A stretch of 64,000 nt of DNA, from assembly GCA_964187785.1 (NCBI GenBank), contig OZ076409.1:61506001-61570000 (forward strand), in the 5' to 3' direction. This document shows positions 11,483-51,321 of the stretch, in pieces (the first letter of the stretch is position 1; the number at the start of each line of letters is the position of its first letter). Both the position numbers and the translations under genes were made by a program. Under the pieces are notes generated by a model that was not told the origin of the DNA, did not search any database, and was given only the letters and a program-made list of their open reading frames with translations. Source of the DNA: Amphiscolops sp. MND2022. Its lineage: Eukaryota.

Positions 11483-11490
11483 TTTGCTTT

Positions 11491-17040: not shown

Positions 17041-17043
17041 TAA

Positions 17044-23097: not shown

Positions 23098-23134
23098 TTA
23101 TAATAAAAAAATTATTGTGAAACTACGTGGAACA

Positions 23135-25313: not shown

Positions 25314-25604
25314 TAATTATTTAGTGATTAGTGATTATTTAGTGATTATTTAGTGATTCTTAGTGATCTCTAAATTTCTCTAAATTCCTCTAAGAATCAC
25401 TAAGGTTTCACTAAGAGCATTTATTTTCACTAAATATAATCGCTATAATTCGCTATAATCTTTAATCTTAGAGAAATAAATACTCTTAGAGACACTTAGT
25501 GAAACCTTAGTGATTTAGTGAAATTTGCTTAGTGACTACATAGTGATTACATAGAGATTACATAGTGATACTGAGTGATTCTTAGAGGAATTTAGTGATT
25601 TTTT
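25309..25604. repeat. Intergenic TAGTGATT-rich region with nested inverted repeats
   Basis: Perfect 21-bp IRs at 25395-25415/25495-25515 and 25381-25401/25574-25594. Confidence 0.75.
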
Positions 25605-25613
25605 ACTAAACAA

Positions 25614-26621: not shown

Positions 26622-26637
26622 GGACTTCGTGAGGAGA

Positions 26638-27690: not shown

Positions 27691-27703
27691 TTATTAAGTA
27701 TAA

Positions 27704-28210: not shown

Positions 28211-28277
28211 TTATTAGAAAAAAATTATCATTTTTGTGGAGCTTCGTGAAAGCTATCGCGAAAGCTATCGCCCAACA

Positions 28278-29341
28278 TCATATTTTAATAATTTGAATTG
28301 TGAAGGTGAGTGTCTTCCCGTTGAAATCAACTGAATCATGATTAGAGTCCTCAAGGAAAAATTGAATGGTGTCCAGTCGTGTTTTGTTAATTGATTTGTA
28401 CGAAACAGTTGTGGGTTCTTTTATAATTTTATATCCGGGAGGTGCGCTTAAATTGAAAGAAAATAAAGTTTGTTCTCGTATACCATTAACAATTGAACCA
28501 TCTACACAGTCGCACTTCAGATGAACTTTGTCGGTGGTTGTTATCATGACTGGTTTTTCTGAAGTGTGAGTTCCGGATGGGTAATCACGTTGTGTAAAAC
28601 CCAGGACTTTGTTAAGTTTGGAGATAAAATGAATAGGGTTTGAGGTTGTTAAAACTGATTTCATCGATATTGTGTCGGGTATTATGTTGAATTCAATACT
28701 AAAAACTGTAAGATCCTTTTTGAATTTTGACTTATCATCTAATTCATAACCTGAATCAGTAATTATTTGTTTTATGGTATTATTTATTTCAGTCAGTTCG
28801 TATACACCTGGAACTAAATTTATATCAATAAACTCATTCTCAATTTCAAAGTTTGGAATAGTTATAGGAATGTTGCTCTTCATTTGCTTTAAATAGTCAA
28901 AACCTTTTTTTGGAAGTTTCTTCTTTTTTTTTATAACTAGTAAGTAAATATATATTAGCTTTTTCTATAAATTCATAGTAAAGTTTATTATTTTCTAAAT
29001 CGTAAGTTTCAAATAGTTTTTTTTATATTTGGCACCACTCCCGTGTCAAACTCAAGTGCATCGAGTTGTCGATCATTTAGAATAATCTGTAGTTTGTTAT
29101 TGCTGTTAGTGATATTATAAACTGTATTGTATACTTCTAAACTTGTTACTCCCATCATCCATTTTTCATTTAACGTGAGAGGAACATCGAATGAGAAAGA
29201 TTCTTTTTGTTTAGTCATTTTAAATTCTAGAGTTTCTTGTGGTTTAGAATGAGTATTTTCAACAATTTCTTGATTAGATTTTGCAATACTTAAAAGAAGA
29301 GATTCTTTTTTATTATAAGTTACGAAGGTGGATAGATCCAT
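28278..29341 (-). pseudogene. Minor capsid (penton) protein, frameshifted
   Basis: N-terminal FDVPLTLNEKWMMGVTSLEVYNTVYNI; C-terminal VHLKCDCVDGSIVNG...PPGYKIIKEP...VDFNG. Confidence 0.8.
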
Positions 29342-29344
29342 TTA

Positions 29345-29581
29345 TTATAGATTAAATTGTTTGAATCCACTAGCGGAAATGTTATTTATAAATTCTTGCC
29401 TATCTTTTGATAATGTTTTCTTATGCGATAGCTTCCGCAAATTTATTGTATTTTTTCCATGATTTTGATTTTGATTGTGAAGCTGTTCTGTGGAGCTGTG
29501 CGTGAAATTTTGTGCGTTAGCTGTCGCAAAGCTGCGCGAGATAATTTTATATTGAGTTGAATAATTATTAATTTTCTTCAT
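29345..29581 (-). CDS. Small Polinton ORF between protease and penton
   Basis: 78-aa ORF whose start overlaps the protease stop and which ends 3 nt before the penton ATG. Confidence 0.4.
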   Translation of the reverse strand: MKKINNYSTQYKIISRSFATANAQNFTHSSTEQLHNQNQNHGKNTINLRKLSHKKTLSKDRQEFINNISASGFKQFNL

Positions 29582-30000
29582 TTATTAAGTTTGAAAGTTT
29601 GGTAGTATAAATTTAGTACTGCATTTTTGAACCCAATTTTATTTGTGAGATACAGTGTGTATAAACAATACGCCGCGCAATAACTGTCGTTTGTCTGAAT
29701 TTGATATTCTGGATAAATACCATTTTTAATATGATTAAGTATATTAAATGGAGGTGGGCATCCATATGAATCAAAATAATTTTGATTTGTAAACATAACC
29801 CAGTGTGTTCCCACTGAGGGATGTAAGTTAACTATACCACTGGTAGTGGTAAATTTATCATCTCTCATGTATATTCCACACTCTGTTATGTTCATGAGTT
29901 TTAAGATTTCTTTTATTTTTACATTGGAAGTTGCTTCGTTTTTTAATCCATATTTTTCAGCAAAGTCTTTGAATGAGAGATAATTGCGAAGCTGTGCCAT
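29578..30000 (-). CDS. Adenain-like cysteine (maturation) protease
   Basis: GTHWV, YFDSYGCPP, QIQTNDSYCAAYC supply the H/D/Q/C catalytic set. Confidence 0.88.
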   Translation of the reverse strand: MAQLRNYLSFKDFAEKYGLKNEATSNVKIKEILKLMNITECGIYMRDDKFTTTSGIVNLHPSVGTHWVMFTNQNYFDSYGCPPPFNILNHIKNGIYPEYQIQTNDSYCAAYCLYTLYLTNKIGFKNAVLNLYYQTFKLNK

Positions 30001-30075
30001 TTATTAGTTATTTTTCATTGTTGTGTATTAATGTTATGTGATGCTGCGCGTGGCTAAACTTATTTCCCATGTGGT

Positions 30076-30624
30076 AAAAATACAAAACCCATAGGCATGT
30101 CATTGTTCTTTGTATTGACATGCCTATGGTAAACTCAAAGCCCATCGGGAGTCCGTTCCACTTAGAGTTTCCACAGCAGAGATTATCCTTTTTAAGAACT
30201 GTGCCATTGGTGATTATTCTCCCATAGCATGTAAGTTGTAACAAAGACTGGGGGACGTTGGATAGAAGTGAACCCCAAACACTCCGGCCGAAGCCTTAAT
30301 TTTAGTAAATGCTATAACCACTAAGCTATGGGAGACAAAGATGTGTTAGTTGTAGTTATATAAGAAGAACGTATGCGCCGGTACATTAACGCTGGTTGTA
30401 CATTAACGCTGGTTGTGCATTAGCGATGGTTGTGCATTAGCGCTGGTTGTGCATTAACGCTGGTTGCAACGTTGACATTAAACTATAAAGGTTAGTGAAT
30501 TTTGCTTCATGGCAAAACACTGTTTTTGATGATTTGTCTTCTAAAAAGTCCTTAAAATCAATGGTTTTGAGGACTTTTAATTTTTGGCGTTTTGTTGGCC
30601 AGTATCGGGATTTCCACTACTACT
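30076..30624 (-). repeat. Right TIR of Polinton (contains second copy of candidate Pol III RNA, 30076-30336 minus)
   Basis: Reverse complement of the left TIR, ending ACTACTACT. Confidence 0.9.
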
Positions 30625-31763: not shown

Positions 31764-32472
31764 GAACAGAAAAAATATTTGAAATAATAAAACAAAACAC
31801 ATACGAGATGAAAAACAGCAGAAAAACGATAACAAAAGCATCATTTGCGAAGAAGAGGAAAGAGAAGAAATGAAGGTGAACTGTAGAAAGACTGAACAAA
31901 ACCGAAAAACAAATTTACGAACATCAAATTATTTAACTGCTGTCGCGTTATGACTAACGCTTAATCAATAATACAAATGCAACTGCAACAATAAAGTGCT
32001 CAACAAAAAACACCTGATTCAATAAAAAGCTCTACAAACGTCCCAGGGATACTCTTCCGTTCCTAATCAAAAATTCCCCCGCAAAAAATACAAAGCTAAT
32101 CAATTCTCTTTGTGCTACCGCGCAGTTTATGATTAAAAACACCTGATTTAATAAAAAGCTCAACGATCATCCCAGGGCTTCAGAGCCGTTCCTTATCAAA
32201 AATTCCCCTGCAAAAATACAAAGCTAATCAATTTCCTTTGAGCTACAGAGAAGTTTATTATTAAAAAAAACACCTGCATAAACAAAGCAGGAATTTGAAC
32301 TAACCTGGAGAAGGAGGGAGCTGAAGATAAATAACTAATGAAGTTGGGCGGCAGCTGAAACTTATAAAAAGGCCGCAGAATAATGGGATAAAAGAAGTTT
32401 CTTCTACCGCGGGATTGCACAAATGAAAAATTCTATTATTTACCGCGGAGATCTGAAATCTAATGCTAAGCT

Positions 32473-32536
32473 CTGATTGGCTGAACGAAAAACAGGCCAA
32501 TCAGGCACTTCGGCAGAAGTGCTGAACCGTTTTTAT
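32473..32536 (+). promoter_or_regulatory. Candidate LTR promoter: inverted CCAAT boxes and TATA-like element
   Basis: CTGATTGG (32473) and CCAATCAG (32497), then TTTTATA (~32530); same in the 3' LTR. Confidence 0.4.
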
Positions 32537-32896
32537 ACGGCGTGCACAGGCTGGAGCTTCATTCTTTCCTCCAACCGGCAGAGCTTCAACACCTAAAAAG
32601 CTCTCTCCCTTTCTCACTTCTACTTCTCTTCCCTTCAACCTGCTCCAACTCTACTTATCTTCTCTCCGCTAAATTCTTGAATTATTTTCCCCTTGGACTA
32701 AAAATTTCTATCTTACTTTCTTCCCCTTTTTGCTTTGGCTCTCAAATTTGCGAAGTCACAATCCCTCTTTCTTGAATTTTCTATCTTAGAGAATTCACCT
32801 CAATCCGACAACAGTCCCAGGTCTGGTGAGTGAAAAAATAACTTAGTTTCTTTTTTGTGGAGATTTCTGATTCTCCCCTTTCTAACTAAATTATAT

Positions 32897-33601
32897 CTTA
32901 GAAAAACTCCACTGATTCTACTCAGTGGTTGTTTAAAATATTTCTTAGAAAAGTTCCACTGATTCTACTCAGTGGTTGTTTAAAATATATCTTAGAAAAA
33001 TTCCACTGATTCTACTCAGTGGTTGTTTAAAATATAACTTAGAACAATTCCACTGATTCTACTAAGTGGTTGTTTAAAATATATCTTAGAAAAATTCCAC
33101 TGATTCTACTCAGTGGTTGTTTAAAATATAACTTAGAAAAATTCCACTGATTCTACTCAGTGGTTGTTTTAAATATATCTTAGAAAAATTTCACTGATTC
33201 TACTCAGTGGTTGTTTAAAATATTTCTTAGAAAAATTCCACTGATTCTACTCAGTGGTTGTTTAAAATATAACTTAGAACAACTCCACTGATTCTACTCA
33301 GTGGTTGTTTAAAATATATCTTAGAAAAATTCCACTGATTCTACTCAGTGGTTGTTTAAAATATAACTTAGAAAAACTCCACTGATTCTACTCAGTGGTT
33401 GTTTAAAATATATCTTAGAAAAATTTCACTGATTCTACTCAGTGGTTGTTCAAAATATATCTTAGAAAAATTCCACTGATTCTACTCAGTGGTTGTTTAA
33501 AATATATCTTAGAAAAATTCCACTGATTCTACTCAGTGGTTGTTTAAAATATATCTTAGAAAAATTCCGCTGATTCTACTCAATGGTTGTTTAAAATATA
33601 T
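32897..33601 (+). repeat. 47-bp tandem array (15 units), each with a CCACTGA-TTCTAC-TCAGTGG hairpin
   Basis: Unit CTTAGAAAAATTCCACTGATTCTACTCAGTGGTTGTTTAAAATATAT; 705 bp = 15 x 47. Confidence 0.95.
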
Positions 33602-34370
33602 CTTAGAAGAATACCAAATAAATGGTTGGCGTTACACTAGTACTTACAAAATCACTTCACCTTATTTACTCAGTAAGCTTGTGGCTTATAAAAAGTCCTA
33701 ATGCTGTCTCTCTACTCAACAGAGCAGTGACTTTAAAAAATTAAAACTCGCCGGTTTAAATTATCACCGGCTAAAACCATTTCTCATTTGGAGCTAATCA
33801 AAAAGCATTATCATTATGAAAGTGTAAAAGCTTACAATTTAGTCTGTAAATTTTATTACGAATTTTCTGATATGTATTAATGCTTTCTGATGTATTTTAT
33901 GAAGCTACTTTGCTCGAAGTCAAAATAAATCCTTCCAATTTACTGCTGAAGTAAATTAAGTAGTTATTTTACTGCTGGATTTAATTAAAGATGGAATAGA
34001 CACTGAGATGCCTGAAAAATTTTACTTAGTACTATTGTCCGTTCACGTGATATAATTCAACATAATTCCTTTCTATACTTTTCCGCTTTTCAGATAACTC
34101 ATTTACATACACTGCCTTGCACTTACTCACGCAACTCCCTTTGTTCGCACGTACACGCAAGGCACTTCCTTTCTAGTATTGCACGGAGTAGGCTTTGAGA
34201 CTTTCTTACTCATTTACAATCAATAATAGAATAGCCACCTGAAAGTAATTTTCACTATGCTACATAAGCTGAACTGACTAATATTGATAACGACTGAACA
34301 GTCCCTTGAAAAGAAAAGGGAACAAAAAGGAAATAGTAAATAGTAAAATCTATCCATGCGTGCGACAAAC

Positions 34371-34387
34371 TGGTGCGACCAGTGAGG
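34371..34387 (+). promoter_or_regulatory. Primer binding site of element B
   Basis: TGGTGCGACCAGTGAGG 3 nt after the LTR. Complement CCTCACTGGTCGCACCA is tRNA-3'-like (elongator Met or Ile-like; isotype uncertain). Confidence 0.65.
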
Positions 34388-35414: not shown

Positions 35415-36872
35415 ATGGCTGCGCAACATTACTTGGCTTATCCAGATCTCGGCCGAGACCAATTCACAGGAACCGACCCAGATCAAGATCCTGAACAATT
35501 TATACAGCTCATTGAAAAGAAGTTCCGGTTTTCTCATGGTGATACCCCAGCCAACGGACCAGCACTTGATGACTACAACTTCAGAAGAAAATCCTACTTT
35601 GCTACACTATTAAGAGGACCCGCAGCGGAGTGGTTGGAGACCAGCATCACAGACGCTAACACTTGGGCAGAAATCAGAGAAAGGTTCATCACACGATTCG
35701 CAGATGGCAGAAACAAATTTAGACACAGAATGGAAGCCGAACATGTCATCAGACGAGATGGAGAAGAAATAAAGAACTTCCTACACAGAATTAAAATAGT
35801 GGTTGGAAAAGGATGGCCAGATGACCTAGCCGGAGTCGCACAGAACAATAGAGACGCCGAAAGGACAGCTCAAGACAGACAAAGAAGACAGAGGTGCATT
35901 GACTACTCCCTGAGAGGCCTAAGACCTCCAAAGCTGAGAGAAAAGGCACACGAATATCTGATGGACCACCCGAATGCAACCTGGGAGCAATTTTCACAAG
36001 CAGTAATAAACAAAGACCTTTCTTACACTGTAACTACCGCCCTAACTGGCGGAGAGTCACACGCAGACCCACTCATACAAGAAATGCGAGACGACCTAAA
36101 GGGAATTAAACTACAAATAAAGGAACAGATGAACAATACTATCAACGCAGTAGAGAAAACAGTAGACCCTAATGCTACAGGACGAAGGATGGCCACTCGA
36201 TTCTGTGGCTACTGCAGAACAAATGGGCACACACCTAACTGGTGCAGAAAAAAGATGAGAGATGAGGAAGTCAAAAAGGTTCAAAACGAAGCGAATGCAG
36301 AGAGAAGAATAACATTCACCAACGATTACAATAAAAGAACGGGACCTGGGCACGGCTCAAGATTTCAGACAAGAATACCCGATTCAGAGATTCGGAAAAA
36401 TATGGAGGTTGCACATCAACTGGCACTTGCGGGAGCCATGCAAGCAACCCCTTCATGGAACCGAATTGACAGATCTCAGAACAGAAACTTTAACCCAGAA
36501 CGCAGATCTACAAAAACTAGATTCAGCTCCGGTAACCAGAGACTTTCGCAAGAGGTTAGAAGATCTTTTCCCAATAATTTTAACAGTCCCAGAAGCATTT
36601 CTCCAGGACCACAGAGAGCTAGATCTCCCTTTAACTTCAACAGAGACCGGCCTAACCCTTTTAGTCGCAACATACAACCCCTTCCACCAAGGAATAACTC
36701 AGTTTTTCAGAGACAACAACAAAACAGAAACGAAAGACCCAACACCCCTATTCAGTCTTACGAGCAAAGATTCCCAAAAACTAATGACATGGGAAGATCC
36801 AACACAGTACAATTCTTAGAAACTGACTACTCAGTGAATTCAGTAGCCGATTTTCGTCCTTTAAACTACTAA
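35415..36872 (+). CDS. gag: Gag (485 aa)
   Basis: Kozak CACCATGG; retrotransposon Gag helices (LLRGPAAEWL...WAEIRERFITRF); CCHC knuckle CGYCRTNGHTPNWC; intact. Confidence 0.9.
   Translation: MAAQHYLAYPDLGRDQFTGTDPDQDPEQFIQLIEKKFRFSHGDTPANGPALDDYNFRRKSYFATLLRGPAAEWLETSITDANTWAEIRERFITRFADGRNKFRHRMEAEHVIRRDGEEIKNFLHRIKIVVGKGWPDDLAGVAQNNRDAERTAQDRQRRQRCIDYSLRGLRPPKLREKAHEYLMDHPNATWEQFSQAVINKDLSYTVTTALTGGESHADPLIQEMRDDLKGIKLQIKEQMNNTINAVEKTVDPNATGRRMATRFCGYCRTNGHTPNWCRKKMRDEEVKKVQNEANAERRITFTNDYNKRTGPGHGSRFQTRIPDSEIRKNMEVAHQLALAGAMQATPSWNRIDRSQNRNFNPERRSTKTRFSSGNQRLSQEVRRSFPNNFNSPRSISPGPQRARSPFNFNRDRPNPFSRNIQPLPPRNNSVFQRQQQNRNERPNTPIQSYEQRFPKTNDMGRSNTVQFLETDYSVNSVADFRPLNY
36860..36866 (+). promoter_or_regulatory. 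-1 ribosomal frameshift slippery site T TTA AAC (gag-pol)
   Basis: Heptamer is in X XXY YYZ phase of gag, one codon before the gag stop; the -1 frame is the pol frame. Confidence 0.75.
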
Positions 36873-39800
36873 TGTCTCCGAAAAATAAAAGTAGCAGCAG
36901 TGCCCCACTAAAATTTAGTCTTAATCTTTATTATTTTGCTGCCGGAGACTCACAAAAAGATAGTGGCTTGGAAATCGAATTTCTACTTGACACTGGGGCA
37001 ACATCTTCAATCATCAACTATAGGACATTTAGAGAACTTTGCCAATTTCAACAAGACCTCGAACTCAGCAGGAGCAACAACACAACTCGGAACTACTCTG
37101 GTCAAATCATCCCTATGATGGGATACATTTCATTAAGACTCTATTATGACTCCGACGGCCAACATAACTTCCCTCTGACAGTCTGGATCACCGAGATGAA
37201 GACACAGGACCTTCTTGGAATGAATTTCTGCCAAGAGCAGATCAACAAAATACATTTCGACCTCCCCGGCAAAGAGCTCAAGAGACCTCTAAATACCTTC
37301 TGCTATGGTAGCCTTCAACTAAACAAAATATACCCCTATGTTTCGCAAATATTAACAGTCAAAATCCCTCACTCCATGTACATTGAGCCAAAAACAACAA
37401 GATGCTACAAATTTGCCTTCGAAAACGCGAAGAATTCCTTCCCTCCCGGATCTACATTCCTTCCAAACAGAAAGGCAGTTTCTACAGGACTCAACTTTAT
37501 AAACGTCCTTTGTACACGGTTTGAGAAGACCTTGCCAATTGTTATGGAAAACAACAAGAACCATACAATCACACTAGTTAAAGGAACTATTGGATACTCT
37601 ATGCTAGACGTCATTGACAAAGAAATCCCAAAATACCAGATTAGGAATCCTACCGAACTCACTTACACCATTTCAAGCGAAAATGAAGAATACAACGATT
37701 GTTTCTTACTACACGCTACTATCCCTTCACAAGATCTTAAAGATTGCATCAGAATAGAAGGAGGAAATTCTACAACAATACTCAACAGACCAGACTCTAT
37801 TATCATCTTTGTTCCGGCTGACCTAAAACCAGCCAAAGGCTTCTCTAAAGAAATTTTAACGAAAATACCTTCATTGAAAGACTCTTGCGCAAAACAGAAA
37901 CCTCAAAAAGGCGACACAATACCCTACTGGGATACAACTCTAAGGCGATTTATATACGTCCTAATCACTAAGGCTAAATCGAAAGACAAAATCGACCCAC
38001 AAATCTTAGCCCAATCGCTGGAAACACTAAAAGCCCACGCCAAATTGAATAATATCAAGACTGTTTCTATGTGACGAGAAGCCTCAGAACTAGAAGACTT
38101 TCAATGGCAAGATGTTACGCAAATTATTCAAGACGTCTTTGCCTATTCAGAAATGCAGCTCCGAATCTATACCAGAAACGAGCTAGATGTCTATGCAATG
38201 ACTACCAGAGGAGACCCTGAGTATGCATTAGAAGATGAAATACAACAATTTTAAGAAGAATTTCACTTAAAGCACAGAGAACTGGAAACTGACTTTACTA
38301 AAGATGCAAAGTCCTGCCAACCACCTTGTGACGAACAATTCAAGATATTTAGGCCCAAAGAAGACAACGAACGACTCATTGAATACTATCTTCAATATCA
38401 GAATAAAGAAGCAGTTCAATACATCAAAGAATTCGACTTTCGCTACTCGGACCTCACAGACGGAGAACTTGTTCTCCTCATAGACCTACTGATGGATGCT
38501 AGAGATGTATATTCACAACACAAGTTCGATGTTGGGAAAACTAGACAGAAATTCAACATTAAACTAGAACGGGGAGCAATTCTGAAGAGACAGAGACCTA
38601 GTAAAGTACCACTACACCTACGAGAAAAGTTAGAAAAACTACTAACACAACTCAAAGAGGCTGACTTCATAAGAGAGATGGGCGATGACGACGAAATGGG
38701 ATCTCTATTCGTAAACCCCATCATCTTACAACCAAAACATGATTACGTCAAGCTGATCATAGACGCAAGATACCTGAATTCAGTGACTGATCTAACAAAC
38801 TACTCCTGGCCCTTGGAACCAATCCAAACCATAATGACGCTCATCAACAGGAAAATATTCTCAGTAAGCGATCTCTCTTGCGCTTTTCACCAAGTCTCAC
38901 TAGACGAGCCCACACAGAAGCTCACTAGCTTCATAATTGGCGGTAAACAATATACATTTACCAGAGGATTCTACGGACTTAAAGGATTACCCAGCTTCTT
39001 CAGCTGTATGATGACAATCCATTTCGAACCCCTCATCAAGAAGAAACAAGCAATTACCTACATAGACGACACGTTAATGCAGGCCAAAAACAAACAAGAG
39101 ATGTTCACAGTGATCCAAGAATACCATTACCTACTACGGAAAGCAGGACTCAAGGCAGCGCCCGACAAAACACTATTCTTCTTGCGAAAAGTCAAGTTCC
39201 TGGGACATGTAATTGCAGCAGAAGGACTACAACCTGTAGCTAAACGAGTCAGGGATCTTCACAATCTTAAATCGCCAAAAACGAAAACTGAGGTAAAGAG
39301 CTTCCTAGGGGCTCTGGGATTTTATAGCTGTTACATCAAGAATCTACATGTCGACAGTCGACCGTTCTACGAGCTGACCAAGAAAGATACAAACTTTTGT
39401 TGGAAACAAGAACACGAAGACCTCTTCCTAGAAATAAAGAAGAGAATCAGCGAAGACACGGTTCTTGCAGTACCTTCAACGAAATACCCATTTCATATAC
39501 ACGTAGACTCGTCCAACGTAGGGACAGGATGTATACTCATACAACAATTTCCAGAAGGAAAACGGATCATCTCTTTCAATTCCAGAATTTTCGCAAAAGA
39601 AGAACAAAAGATGTCCACACTACATAGAGAACTATGTGGAATAGTCTCAGCACTACAAACATACGAGCACTATATCATTGGATCTCCCTTCCCGATCTAC
39701 CTATATTGTGACCATAAACCAATTCTTTATCTCTGGGGACGAAAAGGACAGGTTTCACCGCGATTCTTTAGGTACCAAGTGATTGTTTCCAAGTTTCCCA

Positions 39801-42349
39801 ATCTAAAGATAATATGGACGCCGGGAAGCAACCTAGCCTTCCCCGATATACTCAGCCAAAATGTCTCAATCGAAGAACACAAGAAACACCAACTTAGCCA
39901 CAAGATCCTACCCAACGACATACACTTCTTCGACGAGCACGGGACTCAAGTTCACTACAAAATCAAACACGAGGAAAACGACGAAACTTCAAAGAATGAC
40001 TTCTACCCTATATTGTACGAAAAGGGGGATGAACGGAAAATCCTTCACCTACAAAACGACGGTAATAACTCCACAGTTAACAATGTCTACGAGGAACCTA
40101 ACCTGCCGAAGATTGAATCGGCACAAAGTTGTTTTGACGCCGGAAAAGAAATCAGAAATTACGAAGAGCTACGAATCAGATCTGGCACGCAAGAAAGCAC
40201 CTCCGATATATCACAAAATACTTACAGCTCGGTTAACAGCGATGCTGACGACGAAGCCCCCGCAAATGATGAACTTCAAGAAGTGAACGAAACAAATTAT
40301 GGGCCTAATACGAGTTCCCCGACACTCAAACAATGTACCTCCAAAAATGATAAGGCAATAGAAAATTACGAGCTCCTTAAAACCACAGCAGGAAAACAAA
40401 AGACATCAACTCGAGAACTCATAGGCCAACTCGATAAGATTTCAAAGAAGCAGAGCTAAACGTCACAACAATTTCACAAGAACAAATTAATGACCCAGTC
40501 CTCAGCGTGGTCCGACAATGGATGAAGACAGGAAACAAGCCTACGCCAAAGTCACCAGAGTTACAACACTCGAAAGGCCTCATGCGCTACTTTCAGGAAT
40601 TCGACAGACTAACTATAGAAGAACAAGGAAACCTCCTCTGTTACAACGAGCCAACTGACGACCCGGCAGACGAAAATCTGAGAATCTGCCTACCTCTCTC
40701 TCTATTTCTAGCTTGCTTCCGAATGGGACATTACAATGACTTGGGCGGCCACATGGGAGCTGAAAAAACCTACCTAAATGCTAAAAGATTTTACTACTGG
40801 CCTGGAATGCACGACTGGATCTGTGCCCTCACACAGGATTGTGTTAGCTGCCAATCTAACAAATCGAAACAACGAAGTACCACTGGAAGACTGTGAAACC
40901 GAGACCCCAGTATTCAGAACAGTTCATATCGATCACAAGGGACCACTTAATCCTCCCAGTCGCGGAAATTCACACTGCCTTCTTATCATCGACGCCTTCT
41001 CACGTTACCTGATGGCATACCCAGTCAGAGACACAGGAGCACAATCTACAATCAACGCGATGGAAAAATGGATTATGCACTATGGCATCCCTCAATCTAT
41101 CATACACGATAGAGGAACAGCTTTCGTAAACACGGAATTTGTCAATTGGACTAAAGAGTTTGGCATCACACTGCGACCTAGGACTGCACACTCACCCTGG
41201 ACAAATGGCAAAGTCGAAACCCAAAATCAACATATTGCACGATACTGGAGAAATTTCTTAAACGAATCAGGAAACAACTGGGCCCAACTAGCAGCTAAAT
41301 TTGCATTCGCCCACAACACAAGCGTCAACTACACAACTGGAAAGACCCCCTACGAAATAGTGTTTTGCAACAAACCACAAATACCTATGAGTCTGAAGCT
41401 GGGACTCTATAGGAACAAAAACAAGAACTGCAGATCACAGTTCTGTCACGGATTACCTCCTCATTGCCATAGCGAAAACCAAGTCAAAAACGATTTACTA
41501 AATGGATTACTACGACCACAACTATCACAAAGCCTGTTGGAACGAGAAACAGACTTCAAAAAGGTCTACTCATCCACATACGAAAAGTGCAGAAAACAAA
41601 CAGCTCGATCACACGCCTACAGAAACAGGTTTAAACTCGGAAATCACCTCAACATCGGACAAAAGGTTCTGCTAGAAAACCATCGCAAGGATCTCTCCAA
41701 AAGCCAAAAACTTCAACAACTGCGATTAGGACCTTTTACGGTTACCAAGAGAATTACCAATACGACCTACCAAATAACAGAAGATAAAAACCCCGAGAAT
41801 CTCCGAACTGTACACAGGAATGATCTAATAGAATACTTTCCTAAAGAGGAAACACTCTCCCCTCTTATCGAAGAGTACACTACTCCCCACCGTGGAGACA
41901 CTGATTTTTATAATAATCTGATCAAGGGAAGAATTGAACAACTTAATGTTTCAGAGCCACAAACACCCGGAGATCTCTGCATATTGCCAGTACGGAATCA
42001 ACAAAACCAAATACCTGCCCGCAAAAGAACGCAACCCCCCCAGAGCACAGACTCTGGTATCATCTCTCCAGAAAATCAGTTGTCGACAACCCCAAAGACC
42101 CCCGATCAGCCTCCTACCTCACATCCTCGAGACACGGCAACCCCTATCCTGACGTAAACACAACGCCAACCAACACCCCCAACTAACACCCCGGCATCTT
42201 CTACCAAGTCCACGACTCCCTTACAAGAATTAAGAAGAGCAGTTGCCAGACAACTCGAAAGAAATCCACGTTATCAACGAGCACAGCCCAATCAACCAGC
42301 ACAACAGTCCGTCCTTCGCGAAAGGACTCGAATTGGTTACAAAGAATAA
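36872..42349 (+). pseudogene. pol: Pol: protease - (dUTPase-like?) - macrodomain - RT - RNase H - integrase; disabled
   Basis: LLDTGA; TYIDD; HVDSS...ELCG...YCDHKP; HYNDLGGH...CVSC; HIDHKGP, HDRG, GKVETQN. Stops at 38072, 38252 and 42155; frameshifts near 40430 and 40870; natural end LRERTRIGYKE* at 42349. Confidence 0.92.
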
Positions 42350-42356
42350 CCTTACC

Positions 42357-42743
42357 ATGCCATGCCATAAAGTATATCTAAATTTGTCCTGGCAAGTTCC
42401 ACGAGAACTTCAGTCCTTAGGCATTCTCAATGTAACAATCACAAAAATCTACTGGACCTACACAAACAAGCTAGTTAGGATTTGCTTCTACTCTAGAGAC
42501 CCAGACCCGAGCGATAATAAACAACCAACGCCCCGAAAATCAAACATACCTATACGCCCAGAATCTAAGACCTTTGCTCTTCTATATCAACACCTCGCAT
42601 ACTATGCAGTCACACACCACGACTCTATCCTAGAAGAACTCCTATCCTACATGCCTACCCTAATACCTGACCTACAACCTTCTCCACCTAATACTCAAAA
42701 GGACCTATTCTGCTGCTCCACTATCTCCTCACCTAGCTCCTAG
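42357..42743 (+). CDS. Accessory ORF B1 (128 aa, small-protein family)
   Basis: ATG 8 nt after the pol end; VYLNLSWQVP...ITKIYW...VRICF...IRPESKTFALLYQHLAYY. Confidence 0.55.
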   Translation: MPCHKVYLNLSWQVPRELQSLGILNVTITKIYWTYTNKLVRICFYSRDPDPSDNKQPTPRKSNIPIRPESKTFALLYQHLAYYAVTHHDSILEELLSYMPTLIPDLQPSPPNTQKDLFCCSTISSPSS

Positions 42744-42893
42744 CCGGCCGCAATTTCATGATGCAAGACTACTGTATATCTACATTATAATTATATTTGA
42801 TTATCCTTTGTGCAACCCCGTAGTATACTTTATGAAATAGCAGACGAAGACAGAAGCAAATAAAAACTGGTTGAGTGGAGTAGCCATAAAGGC

Positions 42894-43493
42894 CTACTCC
42901 AGCTCTACAAAGCCCCCCAAACTAGCCAACTTCTCTAGCTGGCTACGCCTCTCATCGTTGGTCCAGGCGGGCCACAGCCGACGAAACTGGCCCCTCTGAT
43001 ACGTAGTTAGACGCGAATACCCCAGGATATAACTCCTGAGCTGGAACAGGAGAACTTCCCCCTGCCCCGCCAGAAGTCTTGACTCCCAGGGTCGCCCATA
43101 CGACTGCAGCAAAAACGATGCAAAAGCATCCGAGATGGGGGCACGGACGACCATGTACCCCCGCACCCCCCTTGTGTCTCTATTAGTCTCCACCCATCCC
43201 TCTAGCCGCCTGACATCGCCCCAATCATATAGATCCATAAAGGTCTCTCTGTCGTAGTTGTTGAGATGACCCGGTATCAGCCTACCGGCCAGACGACTAA
43301 CAGGCGGAGCGGCAGAACTCACTGGTACTGATGTGTCCGGACGACTAGGCCCGGCCACAGACATTACTGAGGAAGACATAACAGCAGCAGACGGAGACGA
43401 GACGACGACAGTAGATGTAGTAGAGGCAGTAACGCCCGACGACCCACTAGGGGCAAGATTATTAGTATTATTGCTGCTCATTACTAAATGCAA
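42894..43493 (-). CDS. Antisense accessory ORF (Ser/Thr-rich N-terminus plus globular C-terminus)
   Basis: 199-codon open frame, GC-rich against the A-rich element; probable ATG at MSSNN. Confidence 0.55.
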   Translation of the reverse strand: MHLVMSSNNTNNLAPSGSSGVTASTTSTVVVSSPSAAVMSSSVMSVAGPSRPDTSVPVSSAAPPVSRLAGRLIPGHLNNYDRETFMDLYDWGDVRRLEGWVETNRDTRGVRGYMVVRAPISDAFASFLLQSYGRPWESRLLAGQGEVLLFQLRSYILGYSRLTTYQRGQFRRLWPAWTNDERRSQLEKLASLGGFVELE

Positions 43494-43755
43494 AGTAGCT
43501 ATTTATAAAGTCATGTAAACCTAAATAAATATATTGATTTAATACTATTACGTCTATACTTGCTTACCTAGTATTCCGAGATTCAATATATTATCTGTCC
43601 TTCATTTCTCGGTAACCAACCACGAACTCCTACGAAGTCGTGTTAATAATTTTTATTATATGACTGTTCTCAAACGCAATGAAAATAACTGATGATTCCA
43701 TTCTCAGATTTGCTATGTTTGATGAACAAAAACCACGAGGCAAAATCACACACAG

Positions 43756-43977
43756 ATGATCATAATCTTCAAGATCGACAACCGTCTTTCACAAATTACA
43801 GATATATAGAAGGAACCCTCAACACAGAACATCATCATACAAGCCTACGCAATAGCAGAAGAAGAAAGTGAAACCTACACGTGTGTGCCAGCTTCACCTA
43901 TCTACCCACTACTGGAGAGCTTGCTATATAACAACACCCCTACTGAAGTCTTCACTAGAGCCAAGTCAGTCATTTGA
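43756..43977 (+). pseudogene. Accessory ORF B2 (small-protein family) with internal TAG at 43807
   Basis: MIIIFKIDNRLSQITDI*KEPSTQNIIIQAY...TCVPASPIYPLLESLL; its TGA overlaps the next ATG (TGATG). Confidence 0.45.
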
Positions 43978-44372
43978 TGTCCTCTCCCGCAGTAGCTGTC
44001 TTCCGCGGAAATAATTACTACTTCCACACCCAATTTCAACCTCCTGTTCCTTGGACGCCCATACAACTCAAGGGCCAATACGAAATACAGTCAATCTTCT
44101 ACGAGATCACTACCTCTGCGATTCAAGTTCGTATCCTCACGCCAGAAGACAAAGAAGCTCTGGTCCTCTTCCTTATTCACTTCGGGTCCAAAGAATACGC
44201 CTACTTATTCCTTTCGTTTAGGCAGTACATACTCCAACACCCCGCTGTCCTCAAGGACAAGGCTTTCGACGACCTGGTTTATTTTATGGACATCACTCTC
44301 ACTTCCAACCCCTTCGAAGAAGAAGTTAGAATCAAATACCTTCACAGCCTAGTCGACACCTATGATGTTTAA
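43977..44372 (+). CDS. Accessory ORF B3 (small-protein family)
   Basis: EIQSIFY...IQVRI...IHFGSKEYAYLFLSFRQY; its end overlaps the start of the next ORF. Confidence 0.55.
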   Translation: MSSPAVAVFRGNNYYFHTQFQPPVPWTPIQLKGQYEIQSIFYEITTSAIQVRILTPEDKEALVLFLIHFGSKEYAYLFLSFRQYILQHPAVLKDKAFDDLVYFMDITLTSNPFEEEVRIKYLHSLVDTYDV

Positions 44373-44706
44373 GATTCAACTCAAATTTCTCTGGCGCCAC
44401 CCTGAAACGAACACCCTCTTAGAAATTCTCTCTATCGCTTGGAAGGACAGCGCTCCTGTGATCCAAATAGAAATCCATAGTCTTCGACCACACCAACCGG
44501 GTCACTGGCTCATCCCGGTAGACACCGACTCACAAGAAGCTGCCGCTCTCGCACAATCCCTCAAGGAATACAGACAGATAGCATACTTAAATCACAATCA
44601 CCCTCTTACACTCTTCCTCCTCAACAAACTCATCGACTTCATCGACTCGAGAAGAAAAAACAAACCCTCTCCCAGTCTGCAATTCATCAGTGACAATTAC
44701 AGCTAA
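44362..44706 (+). CDS. Accessory ORF B4 (small-protein family)
   Basis: IQLKFLWRHP...ILSIAW...IQIEI...VDTDSQEAAALAQSLKEY. Confidence 0.55.
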   Translation: MMFKIQLKFLWRHPETNTLLEILSIAWKDSAPVIQIEIHSLRPHQPGHWLIPVDTDSQEAAALAQSLKEYRQIAYLNHNHPLTLFLLNKLIDFIDSRRKNKPSPSLQFISDNYS

Positions 44707-44766
44707 ATCTTCACAAATAGTTGAAGTTAGTCTCTTTCAAATACTCTTCATAGGCACTCTTTTTCT

Positions 44767-45054
44767 AACAGTAGTGAGGTTACTACTATAAAATTTTAGC
44801 CTCCGCTTAGCGGAGTGCCTGCTAAGCTGCCGGTTTGATATTACGGTCTGCTTTTTTACGGTCTTACTCCTGGATCCATTACCTTAACTACAACTAAAAG
44901 AATAACAGACTTCTCTTTTTCTTAGGTACGTGTGAACCGTGTGAACAGTAGTGAGGTTACTACTATAAAATTTTAACCTCCGCTTAGTGTTGTACCAGCT
45001 AAGCTGCCGGTTTGATATTACGGCTTACCTTTTTACGGCCTTACAACGGATCCA
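44767..45054 (+). other. Two ~112-nt copies of a structured (pseudoknot-like) RNA element upstream of env
   Basis: Copies at 44767-44878 and 44944-45054; stems conserved, loop of hairpin 2 diverged. Confidence 0.6.
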
Positions 45055-45112
45055 CATCTTCGAATAAAAGATTTCACCTGATTGATTTTGCGAAGACTGC
45101 AAAATTTCAAAA

Positions 45113-47194
45113 ATGAAACTATTTTTTCTACTCTTTTTATGCGCCTATTACGCGCCCGTTGTGATCTCACAATGCCCTACGCCAAACCTCGCTAGCGTTG
45201 CTAAAAAATTGCGAGTAACTCATTTCGACTGCGGCGAAATGACCCAAAACAAGCTCTACGCATTGAATCAAGTAGAGCAATGCAATGTGGCCCCAGAAAA
45301 CTTAGAAGTAAGTCGTGCTAGCGTAACGTTATACACTAAACACTTTCGCCGCACTATCAACGCCACTATGTGCCGTGTGAAACATCAGAGTGAAGAATGG
45401 CATTGTGGTCATCACGACCACTCCAGTATGTCAATTCTACACAACGGAATCACTAGCGATCTTTCCTTGTCCCCCGAAACCTGTAAGGTAATGGGTGAAG
45501 GAAAAGAAGTCATAATCCATGGACAACTCCTTAGATTTAAAAAAGGAGTGAAACAAGTACAGACGAGAAACGCCAAATACGGAAAAAGTTGGGACGGGGT
45601 ACGCGACCCTGATACCCGCAATGAGTGCAAAACAGGAGGATGGATCAAACGCGAAACTTTCGAATCTCACATTCAAGACGCTGAGTTATCAGTCAAGACC
45701 CGAGATGGAAAGGTCCTCACACCGTTTCAGATGGTCCTTCCCTGTCCTTTGGAGCAACTTGGTTGTGAAACGACGTCACTGGACCCCTACGCATACACAT
45801 GGGCAGAACCAGATAATTGCGTGCTTGCAGTACGATTCCACTACCAAATTTTTATTCGAGGTCTACAACAGACCACAAAAGTACTGCAACAAACCCGACG
45901 ATGTATACCCGACCAACTACCAATCCCTGTACGTTTCAATCCAACTTGGTGGCTTCGACATGACCTCCGGCAGAAGACTCGGCATCTCCATGGGCGAGAC
46001 ATCTAAACTTCAATATTACTCACCTGACGATGGTTCTGGTAATGGCCGACTCCACCTCTTCAGAGGACCCAGCGACTCTAACCCCAATACACCACATTAT
46101 CTCAACATGGATTACGAGCTCTACCAAGGAACAAAGTTAGATTATCTCTTTTTTCAGAGCACCCGCTTACTTGAAGCTTCAGAAATCCAGCTTTTGAAAG
46201 CTCAATGTGAACAGGAAAGAACACAAATCCTCACCATCTTGATGCTCTCCATGGAAAACCCACGACTTGCCGGATACATGCTCACGGGAAATCGCTCAAT
46301 GTTCATGAACACAGATGGTAGCCTAGCATGGCTCTACCACTGCCCAGAATCCCACTCACCTCTTCACACGATGAACCAATGCTACGACCGCGTACCCATC
46401 TTCTACAAAGGAGTGGTCGCCTTCGTGGACCCCATCACCCGACAGACTTATCCTAATGCGAACGTGCACAATTGCAGCGATCGCATTAAGAACCTCTTCC
46501 AACTGGACATGGAAGACAAAGATTCCTGGTTTACCCTCACTCTTTCACCCGAACACCGTGACCGACCTGCTATCTTCGGACCCAAGGACATCCAACCACT
46601 GATTACCAGATCCTTTCCTGGATCACAAGACGCAGGAATGTACACGCCGAAACAACTCGGAATTTTGGGATAACATCCTCATCAGCGCAGCTTCACGAAA
46701 TGCCCTCCAGAAGTTTTCACGAGAACTCATCATCCCTTCAATGGCCCATATCGGACCCGAATCATTTGCGTATTATGCACCCCGTACCGATTTTTACGTT
46801 GACGGTATGATATCACCCGACTACTTCAAAAATCAATTCCTCGAAACCTTCGGAAGTATATCGTACGTCCTCGAACTCTGCGGCGCGTATTTTGGCGCCT
46901 TTCTTTTTTATTAAATTCGTTATAGATATCACGGTCCTAGTCTTCCGCTATTTCGAACTTCGTCACCTTACTGGTAATACCCTGAGCTTCACTAAAACCT
47001 TGCTCAGTGCTTCGTACAATCTTTTCTTTACCTCCGTTTTAACTTCCGTATTCACCCCGCGGGCCCCTCTCGAGGATAGCATTGAACAAAGAACAAAAAC
47101 GGAAGACGAAATAAAAACGGTAGAACTTCAAAACCTGAAACAAAAAGAGGAATCACTATACCCCTCTGTACAGAGCTTCGTAGCTCCAATTTAA
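45113..47194 (+). pseudogene. env: Envelope glycoprotein, chuvirus/herpes-gB-like (class III) type, frameshifted
   Basis: Signal peptide MKLFFLLFLCAYYAPVVIS; Cys pattern HFDC...EQC...MCRV...HCGHHDH...TC...C; C-terminal hydrophobic segments. Frameshifts near 45830, 46660 and 46890. Confidence 0.75.
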
Positions 47195-47230
47195 AAGTTA
47201 AACCATTCTCATTGAATATACTACTTTTAG

Positions 47231-47812
47231 CAATTAGACTCAATCTTCGACCTACCAAACCTGGACGACGACAACCCTAACCCTAACTTAGAGGATGACT
47301 TAGAAATTGAGCCCTTATCGCCATCAGACCTGCTGTCCCCAGTATCCCCCACAACAATCAACTCCCTCCTAGACCCACCAGACTCAACTGTTCCTTCTCC
47401 ACACCCAAGGGCACATACAACAACGCCCTCGTCAACTACATCAGAGCGACCCCCCTTCCCGCTGTCGTTCACAGAAGAGGTAGCACCTATACCATCAACC
47501 CAACATCCACCCCGGTTCGGCGGAAAAGATATAAGAAGAATCTTCCCCAGAAAACACCACCACCAATGGAACAACGAGATAGCGGACCAGGCACCACTAA
47601 ATAAACAACACAAAAGGGAATACTATACAAAAAGGGCCAGATATGTTAAAAGGCCTAGGTTCAATGCAGATTTAAAGTATACCCTACTTCCTCAATTCTC
47701 ATCATGGAACATCGTTTTCTGGGACAACAAGAGACAAGAATACACTATAGAGAACCCTGCACTCAAAGGACAAAGACTAACTGTCCCCCTAAGATCAATA
47801 TCCGCACAATGA
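47231..47812 (+). CDS. ATG-less 193-codon Pro/Ser/Asp-rich then basic open frame (possible spliced exon)
   Basis: Open from just after CTACTTTTAG (acceptor-like) to TGA at 47810, which overlaps the ATG of the TRAF ORF; absent from the ORF track because it lacks a start codon. Confidence 0.45.
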   Translation, partial: QLDSIFDLPNLDDDNPNPNLEDDLEIEPLSPSDLLSPVSPTTINSLLDPPDSTVPSPHPRAHTTTPSSTTSERPPFPLSFTEEVAPIPSTQHPPRFGGKDIRRIFPRKHHHQWNNEIADQAPLNKQHKREYYTKRARYVKRPRFNADLKYTLLPQFSSWNIVFWDNKRQEYTIENPALKGQRLTVPLRSISAQ

Positions 47813-48753
47813 ATCATAGGCTAAACCCTAATGCTACGCCCTTCATCCCAAAAAATAATCATTCTTCCCATATTACTACACCCGACTGGCCCCCCATATC
47901 GAAACCAGATGACCCAGAAGAACAAGAGACTCTCGAGGGAATAGAAAGATTGAGCAAATGGATATCAGAATTAGAAACCTCAACCATATCAAGTTGCCAA
48001 AACGAAAAACTACTAGAAACCCCGGTCCTTCGGAAATCATTTCCATTAACAGAAACCTTACAGCCTAAAACGAAGTTTGATGGCAAAGTGAAACAACTCT
48101 ACAATTCGGCAGAAGAAGCAAAGACTAGATGTCTACAACTAGAGTCCACAATATCCAACCTACAAGCAACCATAAAATACCAATGCTCCCTCCTCAGAAA
48201 AACTAATATCATCGATGGGAGAAACAATGAACCCTTCCTGTGGCAGATTCCCGCATTTTCTACGCTATATCGAAAAGCAAAAACCTTCCCGGATGAACCA
48301 CTAAGCAACTTCAAATGTAGCTTCACCAGCCCCATCTATACTACTCACCTAGCAGGCTGCAAAATATCACTTAGACTGTTTCCATATGGGATAAACCTCT
48401 TTCGGGGAACCCACTCTTCCATTTGCTGTGAGCTCCATCTTAGCGACTTCACCCTCCCTCGAACATGGCCTTTCGACCGACAATTAGAAATCTCCATCAT
48501 AGATCAAAAAGACAAAAACAACAAGTGGTCTACCTACTTCCCAAACAACTCTGACAAGAACAACCAAGATGACACCCACGCCGGCACCTACACACTTCCT
48601 GACCTCATGAGAGAAGATTTCATCCCTCACACAAAACTATTGGTCAACTTCAGGGAAGCCTTTTTAAACAACGACTCTGTAATCCTCCAAATTAAATTTA
48701 ATGAAGCCCCCTTTAAAATCCCAAGTGCTAAAGAGACCCCCCTTCATTCCTGA
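47809..48753 (+). CDS. PAM2 motif + coiled coil + TRAF-C/MATH domain protein
   Basis: LNPNATPFIP; heptads (CLQLESTISNLQATI); FLWQIPAF...FTSPIY...GCKISLRLFPYG...GTHSS...WPF...ISIIDQ...FIPH...FLNNDSVILQI; no RING. An upstream in-frame ATG exists at 47704. Confidence 0.85.
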   Translation: MNHRLNPNATPFIPKNNHSSHITTPDWPPISKPDDPEEQETLEGIERLSKWISELETSTISSCQNEKLLETPVLRKSFPLTETLQPKTKFDGKVKQLYNSAEEAKTRCLQLESTISNLQATIKYQCSLLRKTNIIDGRNNEPFLWQIPAFSTLYRKAKTFPDEPLSNFKCSFTSPIYTTHLAGCKISLRLFPYGINLFRGTHSSICCELHLSDFTLPRTWPFDRQLEISIIDQKDKNNKWSTYFPNNSDKNNQDDTHAGTYTLPDLMREDFIPHTKLLVNFREAFLNNDSVILQIKFNEAPFKIPSAKETPLHS

Positions 48754-48789
48754 CCTACCCCAGATACCGAATTCTTTTTTCTCCCTGCC

Positions 48790-48800
48790 AGGGGGGTGAG
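48790..48800 (+). promoter_or_regulatory. Polypurine tract of element B
   Basis: AGGGGGGTGAG just before the 3' LTR. Confidence 0.7.
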
Positions 48801-48801
48801 C

Positions 48802-51321
48802 TGTCGCGTTATGACTAACGCTTAATCAATAATACAAATGCAACTGCAACAATAAAGTGCTCAACAAAAAACACCTGATTTAATAAAAAGCTCTACAAAC
48901 GTCCCAGGGATACTCTTCCGTTCCTAATCAAAAATTCCCCCGCAAAAAATACAAAGCTAATCAATTCTCTTTGTGCTACCGCGCAGTTTATGATTAAAAA
49001 CACCTGATTTAATAAAAAGCTCAACGATCATCCCAGGGCTTCAGAGCCGTTCCTTATCAAAAATTCCGCTGCAAAAATACAAAGCTAATCAATTTCCTTT
49101 GAGCTACAGAGAAGTTTATTATTAAAAAACACCTGCATAAACAAAGCAGGAAATTGAACTAACCTGGAGAAGGAGGGAGCTGAAGATAAATAACTAATGA
49201 AGTAGGGCGGCAGCTGAAACTTATAAAAAGGCCGCAGAATAATGGGATAAAAGAAGTTTCTTCTACCGCGGGATTGCACAAATGAAAAATTCTATTATTT
49301 ACCGCGGAGATCTGAAATCTAATGCTAAGCTCTGATTGGCTGAACGAAAAACAGGCCAATCAGGCACTTCGGCAGAAGTGCTGAACCGTTTTTATACGGC
49401 GTGCACAGGCTGGAGCTTCATTCTTTCCTCCAACCGGCAGAGCTTCAACACCTAAAAAGCTCTCTCCCTTTCTCACTTCTACTTCTCTTCCCTTCAACCT
49501 GCTCCAACTCTACTTAACTTCTCTCCGCTAAATTCTTGAATTATTTTCCCCTTGGACTAAAAACTTCTATCTTACTTTCTTCCCCTTTTTGCTTTGGCTC
49601 TCAAATTTGCGAAGTCACAATCCCTCTTTCTTGAATTTTCTATCTTAGAGAATTCACCTCAATCCGACAACAGTCCCAGGTCTGGTGAGTGAAAAAATAA
49701 CTTAGTTTCTTTTTTTGTGAAGATTTCTGATTCTCCCCTTTCTAACTAAATTATATCTTAGAAAAATTCCACTGACTCTACTCAGTGGTTGTTTAAAATA
49801 TTTCTTAGAAAAATTCCACTGATTCTACTCAGTGGTTGTTTAAAATATAACTTAGAAAAATTCCACTGATTCTACTCAGTGGTTGTTTAAAATATATCTT
49901 AGAAAAATTTCACTGATTCTACTCAGTGGTTGTTTAAAATATTTCTTAGAAAAATTCCACTGATTCTACTCAGTGGTTGTTTAAAATATATCTTAGAAAA
50001 ATTCCACTGATTCTACTCAGTGGTTGTTTAAAATATAACTTAGAAAAATTCCACTGACTCTACTCAGTGGTTGTTTAAAATATATCTTAGAAAAATTTCA
50101 CTGATTCTACTCAGTGGTTGTTTAAAATATTTCTTAGAAAAATTCCACTGATTCTACTCAGTGGTTGTTTAAAATATATCTTAGAAAAATTCCACTGATT
50201 CTACTCAGTGGTTGTTTAAAATATAACTTAGAAAAATTCCACTGATTCTACTCAGTGGTTGTTTAAAATATTTCTTAGAAAAATTCCACTGATTCTACTC
50301 AGTGGTTGTTTAAAATATATCTTAGAAAAATTCCACTGATTCTACTCAGTGGTTGTTTAAAATATAACTTAGAACAATTCCACTGATTCTACTCAGTGGT
50401 TGTTTAAAATATATCTTAGAAAAATTCCACTGATTCTACTCAGTGGTTGTTTAAAATATAACTTAGAAAAATTCCACTGATTCTACTCAGTGGTTGTTTA
50501 AAATATATCTTAGAAAAATTTCACTGATTCTACTCAGTGGTTGTTTAAAATATATCTTAGAAGAACACTAAATAAATGGTTGGCGTTACACTAGTACTTA
50601 CAAAATCACTTCACCTTATTTACTCAGTAAGCTTGTGTCTTATAAAAAGTCCTAATGCTGTCTCTCTACTCAACAGAGCAGTGACTTTAAAAAACTAAAA
50701 CTCGCCGGTTTAAATTATCACCGGCTAAAACCATTTCTCATTTGGAGCTAATCAAAAAGCATTTTCATTATGAAAGTGTAAAAGCTTACAATTTAGTCTG
50801 TAAATTTTATTACGAATTTTCTGATATGTATTAATGCTTTCTGATGTATTTTATGAAGCTACTTTGCTCGAAGTCAAAATAAATCCTTCCAATTTACTGC
50901 TGAAGTAAAGTAAGTAGTTATTTTACTGCTGGATTTAAATAAAGATGGAATAGACACTGAGATGCCTGAAAAATTTTACTTAGTCCTATTGTCCGTTCAC
51001 GTGATATAATTCAACATATTTCCTTTCTATACTTTTCCGCTTTTCAGATAACTCATTTACATACACTGCCTTGCACTTACTCACGCAACTCCCTTTGTTC
51101 GCACGTACACGCAAGGCACTTCCTTTCTAGTATTGCACGGAGTAGGCTTTGAGACTTTCTTACTCATTTACAATCAATAATAGAATAGCCACCTGAAAGT
51201 AATTTTCACTATGCTACATAAGCTGAACTGACTAATATTGATAACGACTGAACAGTCCCTTGAAAAGAAAAGGGAACAAAAAGGAAATAGTAAATAGTAA
51301 AATCTATCCATGCGTGCGACA
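48802..51321 (+). repeat. 3' LTR of element B (2520 bp)
   Basis: Direct repeat of 31941-34367. Confidence 0.95.
49757..50555 (+). repeat. 47-bp tandem hairpin array (17 units)
   Basis: 799 bp = 17 x 47; same unit as in the 5' LTR. Confidence 0.95.

Follow-up and report, generated by a model that had tools for sequence, protein, structure and literature searches.

Capture of a TRAF-type domain by Gypsy-like retrotransposons has been described in planarians. The Burro/GYPSM1 elements, which are of the Gypsy-like LTR type, combine a mononegavirus-like env with MATH_TRAF_C, and in one species this domain forms a separate accessory ORF (PMC6431247). The element analyzed here shares the combination of a Gypsy-like element, a mononegavirus-like env, and MATH_TRAF_C. 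However, the MATH domain of Burro lies within or upstream of a giant gag polyprotein, together with BIR and BCL2 domains (PMC6431247), whereas the TRAF gene of our element, compared by description only, is 3′-terminal, lies after env and a further gene (orfX), and comes with a coil, a PAM2 motif, and a stop-start overlap. A chuvirus glycoprotein is also carried by Anakin, a BEL-Pao element (PMC12440569); the two have the env type in common, but the element here differs by its Ty3/Gypsy-like RT and several accessory genes. Among viruses, megalocytivirus ORF111L is a captured TRAF with a coiled coil, a MATH domain, and an N-terminal RING that binds TRADD (PMC3352826). The coil and the MATH domain are common to ORF111L and the element TRAF, while the RING is found only in ORF111L, whose description mentions no PAM2.

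In cellular PAM2 proteins (eRF3, PAIP2, ataxin-2, and Upa1), a short LNxxAxxFxP motif lies in a predicted disordered region, as it does here. The PAM2 of the element differs from these in being element encoded, likely trivalent, and fused to a TRAF domain. To our knowledge, no cellular PAM2 protein has a TRAF domain. Reinitiation at AUGA/UAAUG is described for viruses and the SART1 retrotransposon (PMC10275272); SART1 and caliciviruses have a stop-start overlap after a long ORF, as the element does. In contrast to these systems, no TURBS-type 18S pairing was found for the overlap here, which serves the accessory genes of an LTR element. No PAM2-TRAF fusion, element-encoded PAM2, or overlap coupling was found in the literature covered, a body that lies outside supplements, Repbase, and most subscription papers.

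Gene order of the carrier element

Within the window, i.e., the whole 64-kb stretch of DNA that was analyzed, lies a Ty3/Gypsy-like element of 19.4 kb whose env is of the chuvirus type. Its features are as follows (window positions and strand; A to E denote the TRAF subfamilies described below).

31941-34367, +, 5′ LTR (TG...CA) with an internal 47-bp tandem array; target-site duplication CTGC in front
34371-34387, +, primer-binding site
35415-36872, +, gag, open frame; Retrotrans_gag E 7.8e-5, just under the cut-off
36827-42346, +, pol, PR-RT-RH-IN; three stops and two frame changes in the window copy
42234-42743, +, ORF after the integrase; kept across subfamilies A-D, no Pfam match
42894-43502, −, antisense ORF after the integrase; subfamilies A-D, 34-82% identity, no family match
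43756-44706, +, three small ORFs chained by stop-start overlaps; the first has a stop in the window copy
45113-47194, +, env, Monjiviricetes (chuvirus-type) fusion glycoprotein (PF24664); three frame changes in the window copy
47231-47812, +, orfX, conserved, family unknown; acceptor-like TTTAG at its start, TGA stop overlapping the TRAF ATG
47809-47812, +, ATGA stop-start overlap of orfX and TRAF
47809-48753, +, TRAF ORF, open frame, 314 aa
47821-47850, +, PAM2 motif LNPNATPFIP (Pfam PAM2 profile, conservation)
48067-48204, +, long predicted helix (TRAF-N coiled coil), residues 87-132 (AlphaFold model)
48235-48696, +, TRAF-C/MATH domain, residues 143-296 (Pfam, phmmer, model, fold search)
48790-48801, +, polypurine tract
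48802-51321, +, 3′ LTR; CTGC after it

The element thus has the LTRs, short target-site duplication, primer-binding site, polypurine tract, and PR-RT-RH-IN order of the Ty3/Gypsy group. The best solved relatives of its RT were Ty3 (103 bits, E 1.7e-28), foamy virus (80), and MLV (63), these being scores and not positions in a tree. The 5′ and 3′ LTRs differ at 14 of 1686 non-array columns. A 14-nt part of the primer-binding site occurs 337 times in the genome versus once for a control, and no tRNA gene was found within the 64-kb window. In subfamilies A-D, the three small ORFs that precede env are joined by TAATG/TGATG and short overlaps and belong to no known family. Upstream of env, at 44767-45044, there is an ~85-nt unit, present as 2 to 5 repeats, with a hairpin loop that could pair downstream in a pseudoknot-like manner; Rfam gave nothing real over 42000-49700, this hairpin included. 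Each LTR also has a strong donor-like GTGAGT site (32826 and 49687) followed by the 47-bp array (32880-33620 and 49747-50566), the length of which is unequal between the two LTRs.

The TRAF ORF matched MATH_2 at residues 143-296 (Pfam, E 4e-12) and 23 solved TRAF sequences (phmmer), TRAF domains being its only sequence matches. In the AlphaFold model, residues 1-35 have no secondary structure and low pLDDT; helices follow at 36-61 and 87-132, with pLDDT above 90 for residues 91-120, and then the sandwich. TRAF5, TRAF1, and TRAF4 were the top fold matches of this model (Foldseek; TRAF5 E 2.7e-11). The predicted protein has the MATH beta-sandwich and the preceding TRAF-N coil that characterize the TRAF family. 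The frame, Pfam, and the model therefore agree with the original prediction of an intact ORF before the polypurine tract that contains LNPNATPFIP, a coiled coil, and a full MATH domain. Neither Pfam matches nor the Cys pattern revealed a RING or a zinc finger in the protein, which is thus not a ligase of the TRAF2-6 type. As an alternative start, the upstream Met at 47704 (a 349-aa form called in P0002) was rejected, being absent from B, C, and D.

Lentiviral nef encodes a product that is myristoylated at Gly2, and the gene overlaps the 3′ LTR. The resemblance to nef that was first proposed holds for the 3′ position, the TRAF stop lying 36 nt before the polypurine tract. However, residue 2 is Asn, the ORF ends 48 nt before the 3′ LTR, and its matches are all to TRAFs.

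Copies, selection, and origin of the TRAF gene

A genome search with the TRAF gene returned at least 128 matches, a lower bound since 126 of 512 candidates were scored. Fifty loci were examined and fall into subfamilies A (78-98% identity), B (67%), E (62%), C (58%), and D (35%); wherever the flank is visible, the TRAF of each subfamily ends close to the same purine tract and the beginning of the LTR. Thirty-one of the 50 loci have an uninterrupted frame from its start through the last MATH strand, and in 19 the frame is broken or partial; just 5 of the 16 best matches have an open frame. The TRAF gene thus decays together with its copy. Long open gag, pol, and env frames were seen in B, C, and D copies, in pieces examined singly.

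TRAF dN/dS was 0.09-0.18 in 10 of 10 pairs, with bootstrap upper bounds of at most 0.27, and 0.07-0.13 for the MATH domain only; for comparison, env had 0.04, gag 0.06-0.09, and RT 0.01-0.02. Synonymous sites approach saturation in many pairs; the A pair, which is unsaturated, gave 0.12 (0.06-0.22). Both the presence across copies (at least 128 genomic matches, five subfamilies at 35-98%) and the dN/dS, which the original prediction had proposed to look at, speak for it: selection is purifying, and neutral evolution is contradicted. A captured fragment that is simply copied along with the element would fit the 19 of 50 broken or partial loci and the existence of relatives without TRAF. We nevertheless find such a neutral passenger scarcely credible, because dN/dS is far below 1 between subfamilies nearing synonymous saturation and the open frame, the start position, and the motif are all kept at 35% identity. 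The TRAF gene is almost certainly functional, and the case for this comes from purifying selection rather than from the intactness of the window copy. Indeed, the idea that TRAF was selectively spared beside broken pol and env had to be abandoned. The window copy has five breaks in pol, three in env, and one in a small ORF, and gag and orfX are also open; if 6-9 breaks fall on ~12 kb of coding sequence, the chance that a 945-nt frame stays unbroken is 0.50-0.63, so the intact TRAF is at chance level.

A Pfam MATH scan of the genome gave at least 150 further matches (150 of 440 candidates were scored). Nineteen of 20 MATH loci fetched lie after env, mostly after a recognizable orfX, and make up families F and G; the other looks like an ordinary exon. 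In F and G, the TRAF that occupies this slot has diverged less and has no PAM2. In the genome, the database protein P0147 is matched best (70%) by a single gene with introns, at G000:C3:90.87 Mb. This gene and family F have in common the MATH domain and, upstream, a KFPL...YLHATQLQV segment, and P0162, an orthologue of this host TRAF, is 45% and 42% identical to family F over MATH and the upstream segment. A KSFP remnant of the segment is retained in A-D. The sister families F and G thus trace to an intron-containing host TRAF, in line with the early claim of a captured, intronless host gene, the host counterpart of which does have introns.

Two quick tree searches split the element TRAFs and the host group from canonical TRAFs (SH-aLRT 99 and 95). 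The phylogeny against host TRAFs that had been suggested at the outset is therefore clear for this split but not for the long A-E branch, whose placement inside the element/host side has a support of 29. A-E profile scores tie (host group, 68 bits, versus canonical TRAFs, 71), while those of F, G, H, P0144, and P0127 clearly favor the host group. The PAM2 clade is 20-29% identical to host-group TRAFs. Given that the slot is shared, these sequences are most simply read as a single capture with rapid change afterward; a second, separate capture is possible for the A-E TRAF.

Preceded by a CCAAT box, the first coding exon of the host TRAF apparently has 30 codons and one Cys-rich half finger; a RING exon could lie in an open stretch farther upstream. 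P0159 likewise starts short and lacks a RING. The candidate donor family thus appears to have been RING-less already, with one short Cys-rich finger, which goes against the earlier view of RING loss as the repurposing step of the element. The path of the captured gene can be traced, beginning with a host TRAF that has introns, passing through copies that changed little, and ending in a remodeled form with a new motif. The retrotransposon itself is shown here to have accessory genes under selection, as a set resembling that of retroviruses.

The same host TRAF type is also present in many copies of another family, H (L094-L104, L108-L113, L116-L118; e.g., G000:C1:78.43 Mb). Its TRAF is ~50% identical to P0147, sits in a different, non-LTR mobile element, and ends at the intron position of the host gene. 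Several copies are flanked by inverted repeats of one ORF, and a nearby ORF has a PHYHVLF motif, which we take to be HUH-like; no Pfam match was found. Family H is a second, DNA-level capture of the host TRAF type. That two unrelated mobile families carry the same host TRAF type in one genome suggests a point of conflict.

The PAM2 motif and the MATH groove

The PAM2 consensus is given as xxLNxxAxEFxP (PMC4466420). The element motif has the L, N, A, F, and P, with Pro/Ile at the Glu position. The Pfam PAM2 profile gave 19.7 bits for the first 24 residues of the TRAF protein, against a cut-off of 20, and 17.4, 21.3, 17.3, and 13.8 bits for the starts of B, C, D, and contig L127, so that four of the five PAM2-type starts scanned are under the cut-off and C is above it; the starts of F, G, L130, and two host exons had no match. 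LNPNATPFIP is the only match to the PAM2 pattern over the six frames of the 64-kb window. When the TRAF protein was shuffled, the pattern, which was composed after the motif was known, appeared in 64 of 200000 shuffles. Positions M1, L5, N6, P7, A9, F12, and P14 are invariant in seven of seven diverse proteins. Invariant positions amount to 7/14 at the N terminus, 7/126 in the arm, and 22/157 in MATH (N terminus versus arm, p 5e-5; versus MATH, p 0.003; the tests assume independence and the sequences are related). By this alignment, PAM2 is the best-conserved part of the TRAF protein, which makes a link to PABP the better half of the inference first drawn, namely, an immune antagonist or a link to mRNA control.

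The protein P0144 begins MTLNPHAPIFKP; it comes from another assembly, and its MATH domain resembles the host type far more. The metagenome contig L127 begins MSLNPLAPAFLP and runs on into a P0127-like body that is 56% identical to P0127. In a larger tree, P0144 and the P0127/L127-type groups join A-E at a support of 84, unstarred, and PAM2 likely arose once. Families F and G are numerous yet have no PAM2, which indicates that the motif is dispensable for these elements.

The host genome encodes a PABP with an MLLE domain (79 bits). A second MLLE (43.9 bits) lies in a HECT-ligase-like exon, L072:1126-1650 (−), which we take to be UBR5-like from its HECT-type text. PAM2 motifs gain avidity on PABP multimers, with eRF3 the strongest binder, and human PAM2 affinities range from 300 nM to 300 uM (10.64898/2026.01.10.698208), a spread that leaves room for the element motif to compete poorly. 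The element PAM2 very probably binds an MLLE domain.

The MLLE of UBR5 binds PAM2 peptides. The element PAM2 could bind the MLLE of the HECT ligase UBR5/HYD rather than PABP, which would make up for the missing RING, and host proteins bound by MATH would be ubiquitinated. Such a ligase adaptor would explain why a TRAF scaffold needs the PAM2, and the genome offers a second MLLE match in the UBR5-like exon. We consider it decidedly unlikely, since this match reaches 43.9 bits versus 79 for PABP, and since PABP far outnumbers its PAM2 partners (10.64898/2026.01.10.698208) and would likely titrate the motif.

With regard to the MATH domain, alignment of the PAM2 clade with TRAFs showed that the strand-3 Arg is kept and that the loop and the edge strand are replaced, with the receptor-peptide-binding strand and loop positions assumed from TRAF2. 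The receptor-peptide groove of the PAM2 clade looks remodeled. RING-less TRAFs act as dominant negatives, and dominant-negative action at receptors had been the original proposal; the replaced strand and loop weaken this idea of an immune decoy. In such a scheme, the RING-less protein would join host TRAF trimers or receptor tails and block immune or cell-death signaling, and PAM2 would only localize it. The purifying selection on the coil and MATH is compatible with it, as is the fact that this type of host TRAF was taken up by another mobile family, a non-LTR one, and the reading is stronger for F and G, which keep a more host-like MATH with an FxRP/FxKP loop. Burro elements likewise carry MATH with BIR and BCL2 domains (PMC6431247). 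We still judge the decoy unlikely, given the replaced receptor-peptide loop and edge strand of the PAM2 clade (positions assumed from TRAF2), an identity to host-group TRAFs of 20-29%, a PAM2 that outranks MATH in conservation, and a donor family that itself looks RING-less.

Probable coupling to orfX and a proposed mechanism

The first description of the surroundings of the TRAF gene had overlooked orfX and its overlap with the TRAF start, both of which are conserved here. orfX has a dN/dS of 0.08-0.12 in the five of six pairs for which it could be estimated, and of 0.00-0.04 in its last 74 codons. A profile search gave 98 relatives, none of them named; Pfam on eight orfX members gave no family common to more than one of the eight. 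No relative was found among solved structures, and a fold search had no match at E 0.001. The best structural likeness was to chromo/Tudor/SH3-like sheets (VIA Z 4.0), which is within the common range and nonsignificant. In the model, the C-terminal domain of orfX (47558-47809) combines a basic helix and a three-stranded sheet, with invariant aromatic residues. orfX of A-D has a conserved TTTAG at its start and no Met, so an upstream exon would be needed. A phase-0 GTAAGT donor at env codon 66 could give orfX a start in A-C; this donor was sought and not found in subfamily D.

The ATGA overlap was verified frame by frame in the window and four loci. All 43 loci whose TRAF start is readable have it there (the other 7 of the 50 are broken or cut at this point), most of them by common descent. 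In subfamily D, the overlap has moved two codons on and is still kept. The orfX-TRAF junction elsewhere is TGATG in L127, TAA-AT-ATG (a 2-nt gap) in L130, an 8-nt gap in F, and a 37-nt gap in G. A stop-start overlap that is kept in several forms points to coupled translation, and from this sequence pattern, we regard translation of TRAF as probably coupled to orfX. In the relatives L128 (1753-2300) and L129, orfX is followed directly by the purine tract and the LTR, with no TRAF, which indicates that the TRAF gene is optional. No calicivirus/TURBS-type ribosome-pairing signal was found upstream of the overlap. A TGGGA lies 89-103 nt upstream, but it is forced by Trp-Asp codons, and the host 18S helix presumed to be the TURBS partner has no TCCCA.

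The same protein might instead be made from a spliced TRAF RNA of its own, the overlap merely saving space. The 37-nt gap of family G does have a pyrimidine tract and TTTAG before the ATG, CCCCTAAG lies 15 nt upstream of the TRAF ATG in the window, and orfX has no Met in A-D. However, the overlap survives a two-codon shift and occurs in two different forms, the 8-nt gap of family F has no AG, and other ORFs of the same element are joined likewise; a separate TRAF RNA is accordingly improbable in our estimation.

Our preferred reading, held tentatively and at a little under even confidence, is that this env-bearing Ty3/Gypsy-like element uses reinitiation to make a trimeric adaptor that binds PABP, which would be a route to mRNA control not previously known for mobile elements. 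A spliced, env-skipping RNA would carry orfX and the TRAF gene, and ribosomes finishing orfX would reinitiate at ATGA to make the TRAF protein. The coil and MATH would trimerize as solved TRAFs do, and by this analogy, the protein is likely to form a trimer. With its three N-terminal PAM2 arms, the protein would then grip the MLLE domains of PABP, gaining avidity, in competition with eRF3 and other host PAM2 proteins, and the remodeled MATH would hold a new partner. The target would be the polycistronic RNAs of the element, with tuning of their termination, reinitiation, or stability as the purpose, for and against which we see about equal chances. The full history, in which a single capture of a RING-less host TRAF was followed by coupling to orfX and, in one branch, by a trivalent PAM2 clamp that displaces eRF3 from PABP and thereby favors reinitiation on, and stability of, the element's own polycistronic RNA, is conceivable but doubtful. 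If true, it would represent a PAM2 mimic of a mobile element with feedback on its own translation.

Other repeats were seen in the window outside the TRAF-bearing element. At 5552-13232, an 872-aa ORF (7674-10292) with no Pfam match is enclosed by direct repeats of ~1 kb that lie 6.6 kb apart and are 98-99% alike. A Polinton-like element at 15533-30624 has long terminal inverted repeats, a double jelly-roll capsid (22090-23097), and an A32-type ATPase (24144-25313).
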